This document shows, in pieces, positions 18,149 through 35,551 of a stretch of 64,000 nt of DNA. The notes under the pieces are model-generated. The model worked only from the letters and a program-made list of their open reading frames with translations. It was not told the origin of the DNA and made no database searches. Every line of letters starts with the position of its first letter. Position 1 is the first letter of the stretch. Source of the stretch: Candidatus Delongbacteria bacterium (GTDB taxonomy: Bacteria > CAIWAD01); contig JBAYTZ010000007.1 in assembly GCA_041675285.1 (NCBI GenBank), positions 1,480 to 65,479 on the forward strand, in the 5' to 3' direction. The translations under genes were made by a program, and so were the position numbers.

Positions 18149-18150
18149 GT

Positions 18151-18404
18151 CCACCTTTCTGCTGGCGCCGGTATGGTGGCCCAACGCCTGTCATCCCCCG
18201 GCTTGACCGGGGGATCCCAACCCTGATCAGTCATCCAGGCGGGGGCTGGGGTGCCATGTTTTCCACCTTTCTGCTAGCGCCGGTATGGTGGCCCAACGCC
18301 TGTCATCCCCCGGCTTGACCGGGGGATCCCAACCCTGATCAGTCATCCTGGCGGGGGCTGGGGCGCCATGTTTTCCACCTTTCTGCTTGCGCCAGAAAGG
18401 TGGA
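18151..18404. repeat. Tandem direct repeat of a 112-bp unit (two full copies ~97% identical plus a truncated third copy), ending in an 11-bp-stem hairpin
   Basis: Unit starts CCACCTTTCTGCT(G/A)GCGCCGGTATGGTGG at 18151, 18263 and 18375. Each full unit contains a perfect 9-bp-stem hairpin ATCCCCCGG-cttga-CCGGGGGAT (e.g. 18193..18215). The array ends with TCCACCTTTCT-gcttgcgcc-AGAAAGGTGGA (18374..18404). Confidence 0.8.
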
Positions 18405-18818
18405 GCCAAAGAGGCGCTTTTTCTCAGCGGCCAGAGTCAGGCCACCTCGCGGTGGCCTTCCGCTGGCCGGCGATTGGCCTTCCTGAAACCGTGTAGTTGG
18501 TTCCGCCTGACGGCGTCACCACCTGGTTCTGGTTCAGCCCTGTGGGCTTCACCTCACTCGATCAATGACTCCACCTGTCGCACGACTTCACTGTGCCTCT
18601 GTGACTCTGTGTTGAAGAGCCACACCGACCCCTCCAGCAACCACTTCGAGCCTTCGAACCTTCGTGTTCAAGGGCCTCACGGAATGGGCACCAAAACTCT
18701 CACGGCCGAGGAGAGCTGAGCGCCACAGATGAGCCGATCGCCACCCAAACTGAACGGCCTGGGGAGTTCCGGCTTTGGGGTGGCGCGCGATCCATATCAA
18801 CATAGAACGGGGTCGATT

Positions 18819-29790: not shown

Positions 29791-30002
29791 GGGGGGCTGC
29801 CTTTCTGGGTTCCTTCAGCCTACGCTGTAGAGCAAAAATAGCGCCAGCCCGATCCAGCTGTTGATCCTTTGATATTCAACGTGATGCAATGGAAGCAAAC
29901 CCGTACTGATTCCACCGGGTTGCCCATCCCGCCGGAAATTGGACAGGCTGCCGGGCTTCAGGACTGGCCTCCAGAGGCAAGGCGGAGGTCCCGACGCTGG
30001 AA

Positions 30003-31132: not shown

Positions 31133-32215
31133 TCAGGCTTCTTCGCGCCAGCGCAGCAGCCAGGTGGAGGCGTAGAGCAGCGCCAGGCCCACCAGCACGC
31201 CGCCGGCCAGGTCCGGCCACGAGACGACTGATTCCTCCGCCAGTTGCATGGCCTCCACGTAGACGTCGCCCTGCGGCCCGCGGAAGGACCAGCCCGGCGG
31301 GACGATGTGGCGGGTGATCCACTGGGCCAGTTCACCACCCGTCAGGTAGAGCCGGTCCAGCATGGCCAGGCCCGCCACGGCCACCAGCGCCGCGAAGCGC
31401 CGGGAGGAGTGCCAGGTGTTGAGCGCGTAGCAGAAGCCCAGCGCGGGCAGGAAGAGCAGGAAGTCCAGCAGCAGCTCGCGGGCCATCTGTCCCCAGATCT
31501 GCGCCAGCGGGGCCGGCTGCCAGAGCAGCGGGACGGGGTTCATCCCGTGGACCAGGGCGGCGCCGGACAGCACCAGCAGCGGAATCAGCTGGGCCGCCGC
31601 GGCCGTGGCGAGCATCAGGACCAGCAGGAGCGGCCCGTTCACCAGGGCCTTGGCCAGCACGGCCTCGCCTTCGGTGAGCGGCATGGACTTGAAGAAGTAG
31701 ATGCTGCGGTTGGCCGCCTCCTGACGGAACATGTTCAGGGTCAGGAGGGCCGCCATGAAGCCCAGCGGCAGCAGCGTGAACTTGCCGATGACCAGCAGGA
31801 CCAGCAGCAGCATGTGCGAGCGCACCTGCACGGGCAGACGCCCGAAGAAGTCCAGTAGGTTGGCCACGGTGACGTCGCCCAGTTCCACCACGATCCCGCT
31901 GTCGCCCAGTCCCGGGATCAGGCGGGCCAGGTTGCTGTGGGAGCCGTGGAAGCTAAGGCTGTCGCGCCATTCGGTGGGCGGCTCGCTGTCCGAGCCGTTG
32001 AAGTGGATGGTGGACTGGTTGGAGCGCAGGTTGGCGTCGATGCGTCCCGGCAGCACCAGGGCCAGCAGGCTGCCCGCCAGCACCAGGCTGGTCAGGATCA
32101 GCGGCAGCATCCAGATGGGCCGGTGCTCCCAGAGTTCGCGGCGCATCAGCATGCCCAGGCGCCGCAACTTGCCGCGGAAGTGCGGATTGACGGGGGTGTC
32201 GGTTTGAGCCGTCAT
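31133..32215 (-). CDS. ABC-2 family transporter permease
   Basis: AAGGGAG RBS. Paralogous to the next gene (shared RRELWEHR, FFKSMP/FFQSMP and DRLYLTGG motifs). Six-TM ABC-2-type topology. Confidence 0.55.
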   Translation of the reverse strand: MTAQTDTPVNPHFRGKLRRLGMLMRRELWEHRPIWMLPLILTSLVLAGSLLALVLPGRIDANLRSNQSTIHFNGSDSEPPTEWRDSLSFHGSHSNLARLIPGLGDSGIVVELGDVTVANLLDFFGRLPVQVRSHMLLLVLLVIGKFTLLPLGFMAALLTLNMFRQEAANRSIYFFKSMPLTEGEAVLAKALVNGPLLLVLMLATAAAAQLIPLLVLSGAALVHGMNPVPLLWQPAPLAQIWGQMARELLLDFLLFLPALGFCYALNTWHSSRRFAALVAVAGLAMLDRLYLTGGELAQWITRHIVPPGWSFRGPQGDVYVEAMQLAEESVVSWPDLAGGVLVGLALLYASTWLLRWREEA

Positions 32216-32245
32216 GAGTCATCTCCCTTCGGTCGCGCGAACGGT

Positions 32246-33292
32246 TCAGCGCTCTTCGCGCCAGTGCAGGACCTTGACCGCGGCCGCCATCATCAGCAGG
32301 CCGAGGAGCACGCCGCTCCACAAATCCAGCGGACCTCCTCTACCCGCCGGCGCGCCCAACCAGGCGGACGTGGACTCCAGTCCGCGCCAGCTCCAGGAGA
32401 ACCCGACGGGCAGCAGGTGATGGAGCAGCCAGGCCATGAGCCCGCCCCCTGTCAGGTAGAGGCGGTCCACCATGACGGCGGCGAACAGGCCTGCGCCAAT
32501 CCACATGCCGTTGCGCTGGCCCCGCCGGGCGTTGACACCCAGGCTGCCCAGCAGCAGGGTCCAGCCGATGCCCGGCAGGTACCACAGGGTGTCCACGACC
32601 ATCTGCGCGGCCAGCACGGACCAGCCCGCCGGGAACTGGGCGGGGCGCCAGAACAGGTCGAGGGCGGAGTGGCCGTGGGCCCAGGCCGCCGCGCTGAACA
32701 CCAGCAGCCAGACCAGTTGGGACAGTACGATGGTGAGCCAGAGCAGGGCCAGGCCCAGTGGCACGGCGGTGAGCAGTTTGGCGCCCAGGTACTCCCACGG
32801 TCCCAGCGGCATGGATTGAAAGAACAGGCTGCTGCGGGTCTGCTGCTCCCGGCTCTGCATGCGCCCCAACAGGATGAGGAGCAGAAAGCCGCCGATGGCC
32901 AGGGTCACCCGGGCGTGGCCCATGGACACCTCGCGCAGGAACTCCCCGCGCTCGGCCACCGGCGTGTGGGACGCCACCATCAGCAGGCCGGAGAGGTTCA
33001 TCGTCTCCCAGTCCACGCGGCGTGTCACGGTGGTTGGCGCGGGCTTGCGCCCAGGGTCGGAGGAGTCCTCGAAAAGGTCTCCGTCGCTCGCCTGGACGAA
33101 CTCGATGTTGCCGTGCAGGTGCTGGGGCAGCACCAGCGCCGCCAGCGCCAGACCCAGGTGCAGGAGGCCGATCACCACGGGCACCCAGAGCAGCTCCCGA
33201 TGCTCCCACAGTTCGCGCCGCACCAGGATGGCCAGGCGCCGCCAGCCGCCCTGATACTCGGGGTTGGCGGTGGCGACGGGGACTGCGCTCAT
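32246..33292 (-). CDS. ABC-2 family transporter permease (paralog)
   Basis: ATGA overlap with the ATPase gene. Same motif set as 31133..32215. Confidence 0.55.
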   Translation of the reverse strand: MSAVPVATANPEYQGGWRRLAILVRRELWEHRELLWVPVVIGLLHLGLALAALVLPQHLHGNIEFVQASDGDLFEDSSDPGRKPAPTTVTRRVDWETMNLSGLLMVASHTPVAERGEFLREVSMGHARVTLAIGGFLLLILLGRMQSREQQTRSSLFFQSMPLGPWEYLGAKLLTAVPLGLALLWLTIVLSQLVWLLVFSAAAWAHGHSALDLFWRPAQFPAGWSVLAAQMVVDTLWYLPGIGWTLLLGSLGVNARRGQRNGMWIGAGLFAAVMVDRLYLTGGGLMAWLLHHLLPVGFSWSWRGLESTSAWLGAPAGRGGPLDLWSGVLLGLLMMAAAVKVLHWREER

Positions 33293-34149
33293 GCCGCGCC
33301 TCCCTCGCCCATCAGGCCGACGAACAGGTCCGCCACCCCGGGGGTGCGCAACTCGCCCAGGGGCGCCAGTCGCTCCCGTGACACACCGTCGTAGAGGAAC
33401 ACGTGGCGGCCCAGCAGCGACTCCTCCCGCAGCGGCGCAAGCTCCCGCGCCGCCGCGGCGCTGTCCGGCCCGCACACCAGCTGGGCGAAGCGTCCGGGCA
33501 CCTCGTCCATGGGCAGGTTCAGCACGATGCGCCCCTGGCGGATGAACAGCAGGTCCGTGAGGATGTGCTCCACCTCCTCCACCTGGTGCGTGGAGATGAG
33601 GATGGTGCGCTCCTCGTCGAAGAAGTCCGTCACCAGACTGCTGTGGAAGGCCTTGCGGTAGAGGATGTCGAGCCCCAGCGTGGGCTCGTCCAGCACCAGC
33701 AGCCGCGCGTCGATGGCCATCACCAGCGCCAGGTGCAGCTGGGTCTTCATGCCCTTGGAGAGCCGCGCCACCTTGAAATCGGGCTTGAGCTCGGTCTTGG
33801 CCAGGAAGGCCTCGGCCTTCTCACGGCGGAAGCGCGGATGGACCTGCGAGCAGTACTCCAGCAGCTGGTGAACACGGATCCAGTCGGGCAGCGTGGCCAC
33901 GTCCGCGATGTAGGAGACCTGCTCCAACATGGCGGCGCGTTCGCGGTGCGGGTCGAGGCCCAGCACGGTCAGCTCGCCGTCGAAGCGCAGCAGACCGAGG
34001 ATGCTCTTCAGCAGGGTGGACTTGCCGGCGCCGTTGGGACCGATCAGGCCCACGATGCGACCGGCCGGGATGCTCAGGTTCAGGTCCGTCAGGGCCTGGA
34101 CGCGCCCGTAGCGCTTGCCCAGGCCGGCGGCGTGGATCAGCTCAGGCAT
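33289..34149 (-). CDS. ABC transporter ATP-binding protein
   Basis: Walker A GPNGAGKST; signature LSKGMKTQ; Walker B LLVLDEPT; H-loop STHQ. Confidence 0.8.
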   Translation of the reverse strand: MPELIHAAGLGKRYGRVQALTDLNLSIPAGRIVGLIGPNGAGKSTLLKSILGLLRFDGELTVLGLDPHRERAAMLEQVSYIADVATLPDWIRVHQLLEYCSQVHPRFRREKAEAFLAKTELKPDFKVARLSKGMKTQLHLALVMAIDARLLVLDEPTLGLDILYRKAFHSSLVTDFFDEERTILISTHQVEEVEHILTDLLFIRQGRIVLNLPMDEVPGRFAQLVCGPDSAAAARELAPLREESLLGRHVFLYDGVSRERLAPLGELRTPGVADLFVGLMGEGGAA

Positions 34150-34540: not shown

Positions 34541-34556
34541 GGCCTCACCATTGATT

Positions 34557-34577
34557 TGGTGTTGTATCAGACTACAC
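34557..34577. promoter_or_regulatory. Palindromic candidate GntR operator GGTGTtGTAtcagACtACACC immediately upstream of the GntR gene
   Basis: Dyad symmetry with GT...AC cores typical of GntR-family operators. Located 17-37 bp upstream of the regulator's start codon in an AT-richer stretch. Confidence 0.35.
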
Positions 34578-34736
34578 CACTAAACCACGCAAACACCCAG
34601 GAGAGAGTCAAGCCCCTGGAGCAAGTTTTTTCCACTGCATGAAGTTTCAATCCGGGGCCGCTCTCCGCCGGGCCTGTCGTTCTGGCTGGACGGGGAAACA
34701 GCAGGCGGGGCGGTTATCCACGGATTGACGACATGC

Positions 34737-34923
34737 GGTGCCAGGCCGGTGCCAGGCCGGTGCCAGGTCGGTGCCAGGCCGGTGCCAGGTGGGTGCCAGG
34801 TCGGTGCCAGGTCGGTGCCAAGTGGGTGCCAGGTGGGTGCCAGGTGGGTGCCAGGTGGGTGCCAGGTGGGTGCCTGGTGGGTGCCAGGTCGGTGCCAGGT
34901 CGGTGCCAGGTCGGTGCCTGGCG
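34737..34923. repeat. Tandem array of 17 copies of an 11-bp unit GGTGCCAGG(C/T)(C/G/T)
   Basis: CCAGG recurs with strict 11-bp period from 34737 to 34923. It lies between the stop of the YiiX-like gene (34931) and the GntR operon promoter. The unit length of 11 is not divisible by 3. Confidence 0.85.
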
Positions 34924-34930
34924 CGCTTCG

Positions 34931-35551
34931 TCAGAATCGGGCCACCAGCTCCAGCTCGGGGCTGTCGAACATGTCGCCGGGGGAGATCACGGTTTCCTCC
35001 AGGGGCAGGGAGGCGCCGTAGCGCTCGCGCAGTTTGGCCTGCACGGGCGGGGAGGTGAGGTCGAAGTCGCGCAGCTTCTGCAGTCGGCCGATGCGCACGC
35101 CGGCGCCGCGCTCGTAGATCTTCCAGACCAGTTCCAAGCAATAGATGCGCTCGTCGGACCAGGCGAAAGCCAGATCGTAGGGCCGGCCCTCCAGCGCGCG
35201 CGCCACTTCCCACATGCGCTCCCGCGCCTCGGGCGTCAAGCGCCGGTCGGCGTGGCGCAGGCGTTTGACCACGAAGTGTCCGTCCCGGCCGCGGGCGGCG
35301 AACTCCTCGAGGGGCGTGGCCTGGACGGACTCCGCCGCCTCCAGGACGAAGGGCTGGCCGTCCCGGTGGAAGATCAGCCCCTCGTGGCTGTAGCGCGAGC
35401 CCGTGGCCGCCTGGATGGCGCGACTCTGGCCGGAGAGGGAGATCTGGAAGATGAGGTCGCCGTCCTGGAGCGGACGATTGGCGGTCCGTCCGCACGAGAT
35501 CGCTCCGCAGAGGGCGAGCAGCAGCAGGAGTCGCCAGGTTCGCCGCGTCAT
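34931..35551 (-). CDS. YiiX/YebB-family permuted papain-like (NlpC/P60 superfamily) protein, putative lipoprotein
   Basis: Signal peptide with lipobox-like LLALCGAISCG. Motifs YSHEGLIF and ERIYCLELVWKIY as in the DUF830/YiiX family. Confidence 0.55.
   Translation of the reverse strand: MTRRTWRLLLLLALCGAISCGRTANRPLQDGDLIFQISLSGQSRAIQAATGSRYSHEGLIFHRDGQPFVLEAAESVQATPLEEFAARGRDGHFVVKRLRHADRRLTPEARERMWEVARALEGRPYDLAFAWSDERIYCLELVWKIYERGAGVRIGRLQKLRDFDLTSPPVQAKLRERYGASLPLEETVISPGDMFDSPELELVARF

Follow-up and report, generated by a model that had tools for sequence, protein, structure and literature searches.

The REP and BIME elements of enterobacteria are dispersed, extragenic sequences located at gene 3' ends or between convergent genes, in both orientations, and a protein-binding role at the DNA level has been proposed for them; gyrase and IHF act at these elements. 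REPs are imperfect palindromes of 20–40 bp, clustered in alternating orientation and linked to RAYT (IS200/IS605-like) transposases. In contingency loci, the repeat tract is found inside an open reading frame or between promoter elements. Direct repeats of 11 bp are known from parC of plasmid R1, where ten of them are bound by ParR and the array is located beside the par genes, overlapping the par promoter. Finally, the STRR sequences of cyanobacteria are short units in tandem that recur at numerous dispersed non-coding positions within one lineage and for which there is no consensus on function (PMC2670836).

Here, we analyzed an array of 17 tandem units in a stretch of 64,000 nucleotides (referred to as the window) and compared it with these systems. 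Like the STRR sequences, it belongs to a family of short tandem units dispersed over non-coding sites, probably of one lineage, but STRRs are built from 7-bp units and occur in filamentous cyanobacteria, whereas the present unit has 11 bp, a GGCAC core and a palindromic head, and carries the label of another candidate phylum, Candidatus Delongbacteria. With REP/BIME elements the family shares its dispersed and extragenic position at gene 3' ends in both orientations. It differs from them in that it consists of direct 11-bp repeats, of which only the first unit is palindromic and whose single strands show no more tendency to fold than shuffled sequences, instead of a stem-loop-forming imperfect palindrome of 20–40 bp, and in that no RAYT-like gene is present among the examined neighbours. 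The resemblance to iteron centromeres of the parC type is given by direct repeats of about one helical turn, placed on the same face as would suit cooperative protein binding, but the GGCAC arrays are chromosomal, dispersed and unlinked to a partition gene. In common with variable-number tandem repeats (VNTRs) and contingency loci, the array consists of short head-to-tail units without spacers, and near-identical genomes differ by whole units (9 versus 7). In contrast to contingency loci, however, it follows a stop codon, with the nearest promoter-like hexamer 124 bp away, and unlike in ordinary VNTRs, its unit recurs at many loci. The array is consequently filed with the dispersed short repeats, but in neither the STRR nor the REP/BIME class, as unit length, unit structure and lineage differ.

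The genes around the array are all encoded on the minus strand, and the gene coordinates agree with the first-pass annotation in placing the repeat between a YiiX-like gene and a GntR-ABC operon. The local order, read along the direction of transcription, is as follows:

34931 to 35551, minus strand: yiiX-like lipoprotein gene (Peptidase_C92, 206 aa), from the gene calls
34913 to 34925, no strand assigned: head of the array on the yiiX side, GGTGCCTGGCGCG, a degenerate GGTGCC(W)GGCACC palindrome with two mismatches
34736 to 34922, minus strand: tandem array of 17 x 11 bp, from TRF, the unit listing and the motif register
34541 to 34735, minus strand: spacer of 195 bp from the array to the GntR start codon
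34142 to 34540, minus strand: gene of a GntR-family regulator (132 aa), first of the operon, from gene calls and homology search
33289 to 34149, minus strand: ABC ATPase gene, 3' of the GntR gene
32246 to 33292, minus strand: membrane-protein gene (permease), 3' of the GntR gene
31133 to 32215, minus strand: another membrane-protein gene (permease), 3' of the GntR gene
31133 to 34149, minus strand: whole block of the ABC ATPase gene and the two membrane-protein genes, from the gene calls

Cutting the sequence in 11-base steps yielded 17 gap-free units at 34736–34922, starting 8 nt past the TGA stop codon of yiiX (34933–34931); the frame of 34737–34923 given earlier describes the same 17-copy array shifted by one base. 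TRF reported a single array at 34736–34918 with a period of 11, 16.6 copies, 93% matches and 0% indels, and its score of 282 is the highest among the short-period repeats of the window. The earlier view of a strictly periodic, non-coding sequence can thus be upheld: no called gene covers the stretch, and the long open frames running through it, in a genome of 70% G+C, either use another frame than yiiX or are antisense to it. Allowing at most one mismatch, the 9-mer GGTGCCAGG matches 17 times in exact 11-bp register inside the array and 38 times at scattered positions elsewhere in the window, both strands counted. On the minus strand, which is C-rich, the array reads (A/G)CC(T/A)GGCACC(G/C), and this C-rich strand (CCTGGCACC) is the sense strand of yiiX. 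GGCAC is present in all 17 units; TGGCAC, which had been ascribed to every minus-strand unit, is found in 15 of them and missing from the remaining two. Within the array, identical variant units form internal blocks, as is typical of slippage. An assembly artefact can be dismissed, because the array sits inside a contig of 211 kb and relatives that were assembled independently have an array in this position too. In four Logan contigs from other samples, the sequence breaks off within the array.

Two of these relatives, the metagenome-assembled genomes (MAGs) GCA_020726405.1 (L116) and GCA_973787295.1 (L119) from NCBI, like all assemblies used here derived from short-read metagenomes, are about 85–87% identical to the window at the DNA level and encode a GntR protein of 92% identity. 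At the orthologous site, flanked by the stop codon of a fragmented yiiX on one side and by GCATGTCGTCAATCCGTGGATAACC on the other, they hold 9 (L116) and 7 units (L119), compared to 17 units in the window, so that the repeat number, earlier suggested for comparison among related strains, turned out not to be fixed. L116 and L119 are 99.58% identical to each other over 6155 bp and differ by 4 substitutions and one 22-bp gap equal to two units, although the difference of 9 versus 7 between two short-read MAGs could be an assembly effect. Taken as it stands, one 22-bp gap against 4 substitutions indicates that copy number changes faster than point substitution. The 17 units of the window comprise a different mix of variant units from those of L116 and L119, and the array has persisted across about 13–15% DNA divergence. 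In both relatives (L116, 1935–2696; L119, 1957–2718) the genes for C_GCAxxG, PEMT and YiiX are broken into short open reading frames, apparently pseudogenes, with the array retained. In the spacer, the 30 nt adjoining the array (34706–34735) are 100% identical in L116 and L119, while the surrounding DNA is about 87% identical; this block includes TTATCCACG (34714–34722, plus strand), a DnaA-box-like 9-mer with 8/9 matches. A further contig (L122) shows the same synteny from RecD to PEMT as the window, but has neither yiiX nor the array. The array thus goes with the 3' flank of yiiX and not with the operon. It is not a general feature of yiiX loci either, since 36 loci with yiiX homologues in reference genomes (at most 62% identity) showed no comparable array.

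The first-pass annotation had placed the array at the promoter of the GntR-ABC operon. We collected orthologous operons by homology search, fetched their contigs and aligned the upstream regions (alignment A2). Five upstream regions (window, L116, L121, L122 and L123) align only in the last ~100 bp before the ATG, where a conserved block comprises an A-run, TTGAC(T/A) and GTGTTTGCGTGTTTTAGTGGTGTAGTCTGATACAACAC, including a palindrome typical of a GntR-type operator. The corresponding positions in the window are:

34558 to 34631, minus strand: probable promoter/operator block of the GntR-ABC operon, conserved in five orthologous operons with differing upstream neighbours
34626 to 34631, minus strand: A-run, part of the conserved block
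34606 to 34611, minus strand: TTGACT, part of the conserved block
34558 to 34578, minus strand: palindrome GGTGTAGTCTGATACAACACC, part of the conserved block

In the window and L116, the block is preceded by yiiX and the array. In three operons without an array, its upstream neighbour is PEMT with no yiiX (L122), a cytochrome c gene (L121) or a divergent polyphosphate kinase gene (L123). Because the block persists in these three orthologous operons, we infer that the promoter and operator of the GntR-ABC operon lie in the spacer and not in the array, and 34558–34631 is probably the autoregulated promoter and operator of the GntR operon, which speaks against the placement made earlier. A scan of the GntR upstream region for sigma-70 consensus promoters yielded nothing, and the spacing of 21 nt between TTGACT and TTTAGT is not typical of sigma-70 promoters. 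Measured from its near edge, the array lies 124 bp upstream of TTGACT and about 196 bp upstream of the GntR ATG.

Next, we looked for the same unit at other sites. The 64-kb window itself holds one array only, and the multi-copy nature of the repeat is inferred from related contigs of one sample. JGI metagenome contigs were searched for three consecutive units (GGTGCCAGG-NN x3), a pattern which fixes the 9-mer core and gives equal weight to all nine core positions. This search revealed 76 metagenome loci with at least three units. In sample Ga0172380, the unit of the window was found at 22 loci (~20 distinct arrays) on 14 contigs with 2.18 Mb in total, equivalent to ~1 array per 100 kb. The two linker bases vary by contig group and are AA/TT, CG/CC (the type of the window), CA or TG. 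With regard to the host, the exact GntR protein of the window is labelled Candidatus Delongbacteria at NCBI. On a contig with an AA-linker array (L043), one neighbouring protein carries a T9SS sorting domain and another has its best named relative in Candidatus Delongbacteria with 57% identity. The family therefore looks lineage-specific rather than universal, the lineage probably being Candidatus Delongbacteria, a label for which one array-neighbour protein was checked and which leaves a few loci of lower G+C unplaced. No viral contig matched the three-unit pattern, no Rfam family matched the array region or the whole window, and the spacer had no counterpart in the plasmid collection. When the literature was searched for the unit or for intergenic repeats of 11 bp, only unrelated primer matches came up, with no description of the family.

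The position of the arrays relative to genes was assessed with crude, GC3-based gene calls, counting identical arrays once. By this heuristic, the flanks comprise 47 gene 3' ends versus 9 gene 5' sides, 17 arrays begin within 25 nt of a stop codon, and five lie between two gene 3' ends. Relative to the adjacent gene, the C-rich strand is sense in 22 cases and antisense in 25. The family thus combines, as far as crude gene calls can tell, the extragenic position, the 3'-end bias and the use of both orientations that are seen in STRR- and REP-like repeats. No transposase or target duplication was seen at the arrays. Among the examined genes adjoining arrays or the structured elements described below, which are ordinary genes, no repeat-associated or RAYT-like gene was found.

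In the variant units, 19 of 100 mismatches fall in the five GGCAC positions, with none at the first G; mismatches accumulate at positions 1, 3 and 9 of the core, and the linker bases vary as well. Directly before the first unit, GGTG is present in 24 of 73 arrays, creating the palindrome GGTGCC(W)GGCACC, compared to a background of 27 among 7683 CCWGG sites (0.35%) outside arrays, which amounts to a ~90-fold enrichment. A second class of heads has GTGC preceding TCTGGCAC. Solo palindromes are nearly absent outside arrays. An abundant solo palindrome as the seed of the arrays was accordingly discarded, because 606 kb of sequence outside arrays contained a single solo GGTGCCWGGCACC and the window no more than expected by chance. 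At 8 locus pairs shared between samples, short arrays of 3–6 units show no differences, as expected if slippage rises with array length. Several contigs contain inverted pairs of arrays ~90 bp apart (L049, 736–957; L054, 5992–6213; L087, 2493–2669; L107, 61–237; L044/L055), in which the GGTGCC(W)GGCACC palindrome opens each arm at its outer end. Further short tandem arrays occur in L073, L081, L094 and L103, for example of the 7-mers GTCGTTA, GACCAAC and CCTAAAC, as well as other 11-mers in L103, indicating that an abundance of short tandem repeats is a general trait of some of these genomes.

A structured intergenic element of ~215 nt, present in multiple copies, directly adjoins ~10 arrays in sample Ga0172380, following the 11-bp GGCAC arrays. 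Fifteen copies support 46 predicted pairs, of which 12 show compensatory changes, and it is also found in L060, L068, L069, L077, L082, L083, L086, L108, L109, L113 and L115. It has no Rfam match, no plasmid match and no transposase nearby. The window contains the following copy:

18366 to 18557, plus strand: copy of the ~215-nt element, preceded by a 112-bp tandem duplication and not by an 11-bp array

This duplication (18150–18393; 2.2 copies, 96% identical), each copy of which starts with the first ~45 nt of the element (TCCACCTTTCTGC...), takes the place held by 11-bp arrays in related contigs. The 17-unit array, in turn, is a solo array: nhmmer with --max found no ~215-nt element near 34.5–35 kb. 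A REP-like hairpin, GTCATCCCCCGGCTTGACCGGGGGATCCCA, is present at ~18186–18222 and ~18298–18334 of the window and in the Ga0172380 contigs L060, L082 and L108 (alignment A1). Between ~18819 and 18872, four copies of GAGTSAC are spaced 11–19 nt apart just upstream of the next open frame.

Several physical properties were considered for the array. Helically phased repeats had been proposed to create curved DNA, and an in silico prediction was performed with a wedge model whose angles are reportedly those of Bolshoy et al. from 1991. The predicted curvature of 10.7 degrees per turn exceeds that of the genome (5.35 ± 0.95, maximum 9.7 in 400 random windows), but 28% of random genomic 11-mers repeated 17 times equal or exceed it, and A-tract controls reach 20–26 degrees. 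The curvature is thus a generic outcome of the 11-bp period and not exceptional. A G-quadruplex was rejected (G4Hunter mean 0.52, maximum 1.16, no G3 motif), as was a stable hairpin or terminator, since shuffled sequences fold at least as well as either single strand and a search for intrinsic terminators was negative. The flanks TGACGA...TCGTCA at this locus suggested an array grown in the loop of a terminator hairpin; across 65 arrays, however, flanking inverted repeats were found in 10 cases versus 8.9 expected, which equals the level of controls, and the idea was discarded as a general rule. Some units contain the Chi-like CCAGGTGG, and recBCD is located nearby, but the motif is restricted to units with the CCCA linker and absent from most arrays of the family, which points to coincidence. 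Dcm deamination as a source of the variant units found no support, as C-to-T changes are rarer at the second C of CCWGG (7 variant types) than at the first (22).

Altogether, we consider it reasonably probable (roughly 60%) that the array belongs to a lineage-specific family of 11-bp minisatellites found at dispersed sites, is prone to slippage, lies in the region 3' of yiiX and has nothing to do with the GntR promoter. Changes in its length come in whole units, most simply explained by slipped-strand mispairing, and make it a variable-number tandem repeat. Any selected role would be expected to act on double-stranded DNA, because the orientation of the arrays relative to genes is random. The likeliest role of this kind may be that of a one-face platform on which a putative protein reads one GGCAC per turn of the helix, similar in kind to REP/BIME elements; failing that, the array would have no function.

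The reading put forward by the first-pass annotation was a phase-variation switch, in which the GntR-ABC operon is switched on and off through changes in promoter geometry as units are gained or lost. Unit number does vary (7, 9 and 17), as this proposal assumed, and the array is located upstream of the operon and co-oriented with it. The part of the proposal that concerns promoter spacing did not hold, since the TTGACT block lies outside the array, 124 bp away, and slippage cannot alter the spacing from -35 to -10. The tract follows the yiiX stop codon instead of lying within an open reading frame or between promoter elements, and the conserved promoter/operator block, 124–196 bp downstream of the array, is intact in array-less relatives. 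Steps of 11 bp moreover keep the helical face almost constant, so that helical phase would be preserved, and the array follows yiiX and not the operon, being missing where yiiX is missing (L122). Many arrays of the family are located at gene 3' ends, with no promoter there to switch. We regard phase variation as most improbable. Hardly better are the chances of a row of overlapping sigma-54 promoter-like sites facing the GntR operon, used as a promoter or as a sink or roadblock for the holoenzyme. No -12 partner had been seen for the -24-like TGGCAC; this needs correction, as the next unit supplies a GC in the GG-N10-GC spacing, and 13 unit junctions match TGGCAC-N5-TTGC with one mismatch, always TGGC for TTGC. 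The 11-bp period itself sets GC exactly 10 nt after GG, both dinucleotides belong to the invariant GGCAC of the family, and the total of 16 sigma-54-like matches in the window was reached by none of 100 shuffles. The best such site outside the array is TGGCGCTATTTTTGC (29832–29846, minus strand), with one mismatch to TGGCAC-N5-TTGC. Against sigma-54 stand the -12 element, which reads TGGC in every unit, and the position of the arrays, mostly at gene 3' ends, five of them with 3' ends on both sides, and in both orientations. The window and the array-bearing loci, which represent limited sequence, showed neither an enhancer-binding protein (GAFTGA) nor an RpoN box, and the conserved TTGACT block of the operon is kept in relatives without the array. 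A promoter or sink for sigma-54 is thus very unlikely. The C-rich transcript at the yiiX locus could instead act as a Rho entry (rut) site, ending yiiX transcripts and shielding the autoregulated GntR-ABC operon from read-through. The sense RNA (48.7% C, 25.7% G) contains an unbroken chain of 17 YC dimers with N9 spacing, in line with the descriptor [(YC)N9-13]n of Rho-dependent terminators (PMC6144790). Its predicted folding is weaker than that of shuffled sequences (z = +1.86), 197 of 200 of which form structures that are as stable or more so, and it thus resembles rut sites in being C-rich, G-poor and weakly structured with YC dimers every 11 nt (PMC6144790). At this locus the array starts 8 nt past the yiiX stop in sense orientation, and the search for intrinsic terminators gave none between yiiX and the GntR gene. 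However, rut sites are not exact repeats and work in sense orientation only, whereas about half of the family is antisense to the adjacent gene (22 sense versus 25 antisense), so Rho loading cannot be the general role. Every unit also contains TGG and GGC, which correlate negatively with Rho termination (PMC6144790), and the G-rich strand has a YC chain of equal length, so that this measure does not separate the strands. Overall, a Rho entry site at this locus appears improbable. More generally, the random orientation of the family argues against any strand-specific general function, be it as promoter or in Rho loading.

A role that is independent of the strand would be a protein-binding platform, in which a putative dimeric or oligomerising protein nucleates on GGTGCC(W)GGCACC and spreads along GGCAC half-sites one turn apart; the platform would label or insulate the 3' ends of genes or absorb supercoils at these sites. 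As a separate explanation of the array, this remains tentative and rather unlikely. The near-invariance of GGCAC, while positions 1, 3 and 9 and the linker vary, is consistent with it, as are the ~90-fold enriched head palindromes, the strict 11-bp period without indels and the preference for 3' ends independent of the orientation of the neighbouring gene. Because solo palindromes are almost absent outside arrays, head and array appear to form one unit. At the same time, no repeat-associated gene was seen among the examined neighbours of the arrays, the head in the window is degenerate with two mismatches, the predicted curvature is generic for 11-bp arrays, and the constraint on the core could stem from the copying mechanism instead of protein binding. 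Judged from sequence patterns, the constrained GGCAC together with the head palindrome nevertheless argues against a purely neutral repeat and points to recognition of double-stranded DNA at each helical turn, which the minisatellite reading outlined above would accommodate.

For genome annotation, labelling this array as a promoter repeat of the GntR-ABC operon is tempting but probably wrong, and changes in its length should not be read as phase variation of the operon. Assemblies of these organisms are, moreover, known to break at the arrays. The repeat family, with units of one helical turn, a constrained GGCAC, a palindromic head in one third of the arrays and a strong preference for 3' flanks, is undescribed in the literature searched and belongs to a barely studied candidate phylum. 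In a bolder and unlikely version, Delongbacteria may carry an undescribed system of phased GGCAC arrays that are nucleated by a palindrome behind genes and read by a putative dedicated oligomerising protein or by the sigma-54 holoenzyme to organise DNA or insulate transcription units; in some genomes, it would be coupled to the ~215-nt structured, multi-copy RNA-like element without Rfam match. If the constraint does reflect protein binding, the array could serve as bait in pull-down experiments and would offer a route to a DNA-organising factor in an uncultured lineage; if the arrays are not bound by protein, they would still be useful as markers for strain typing.
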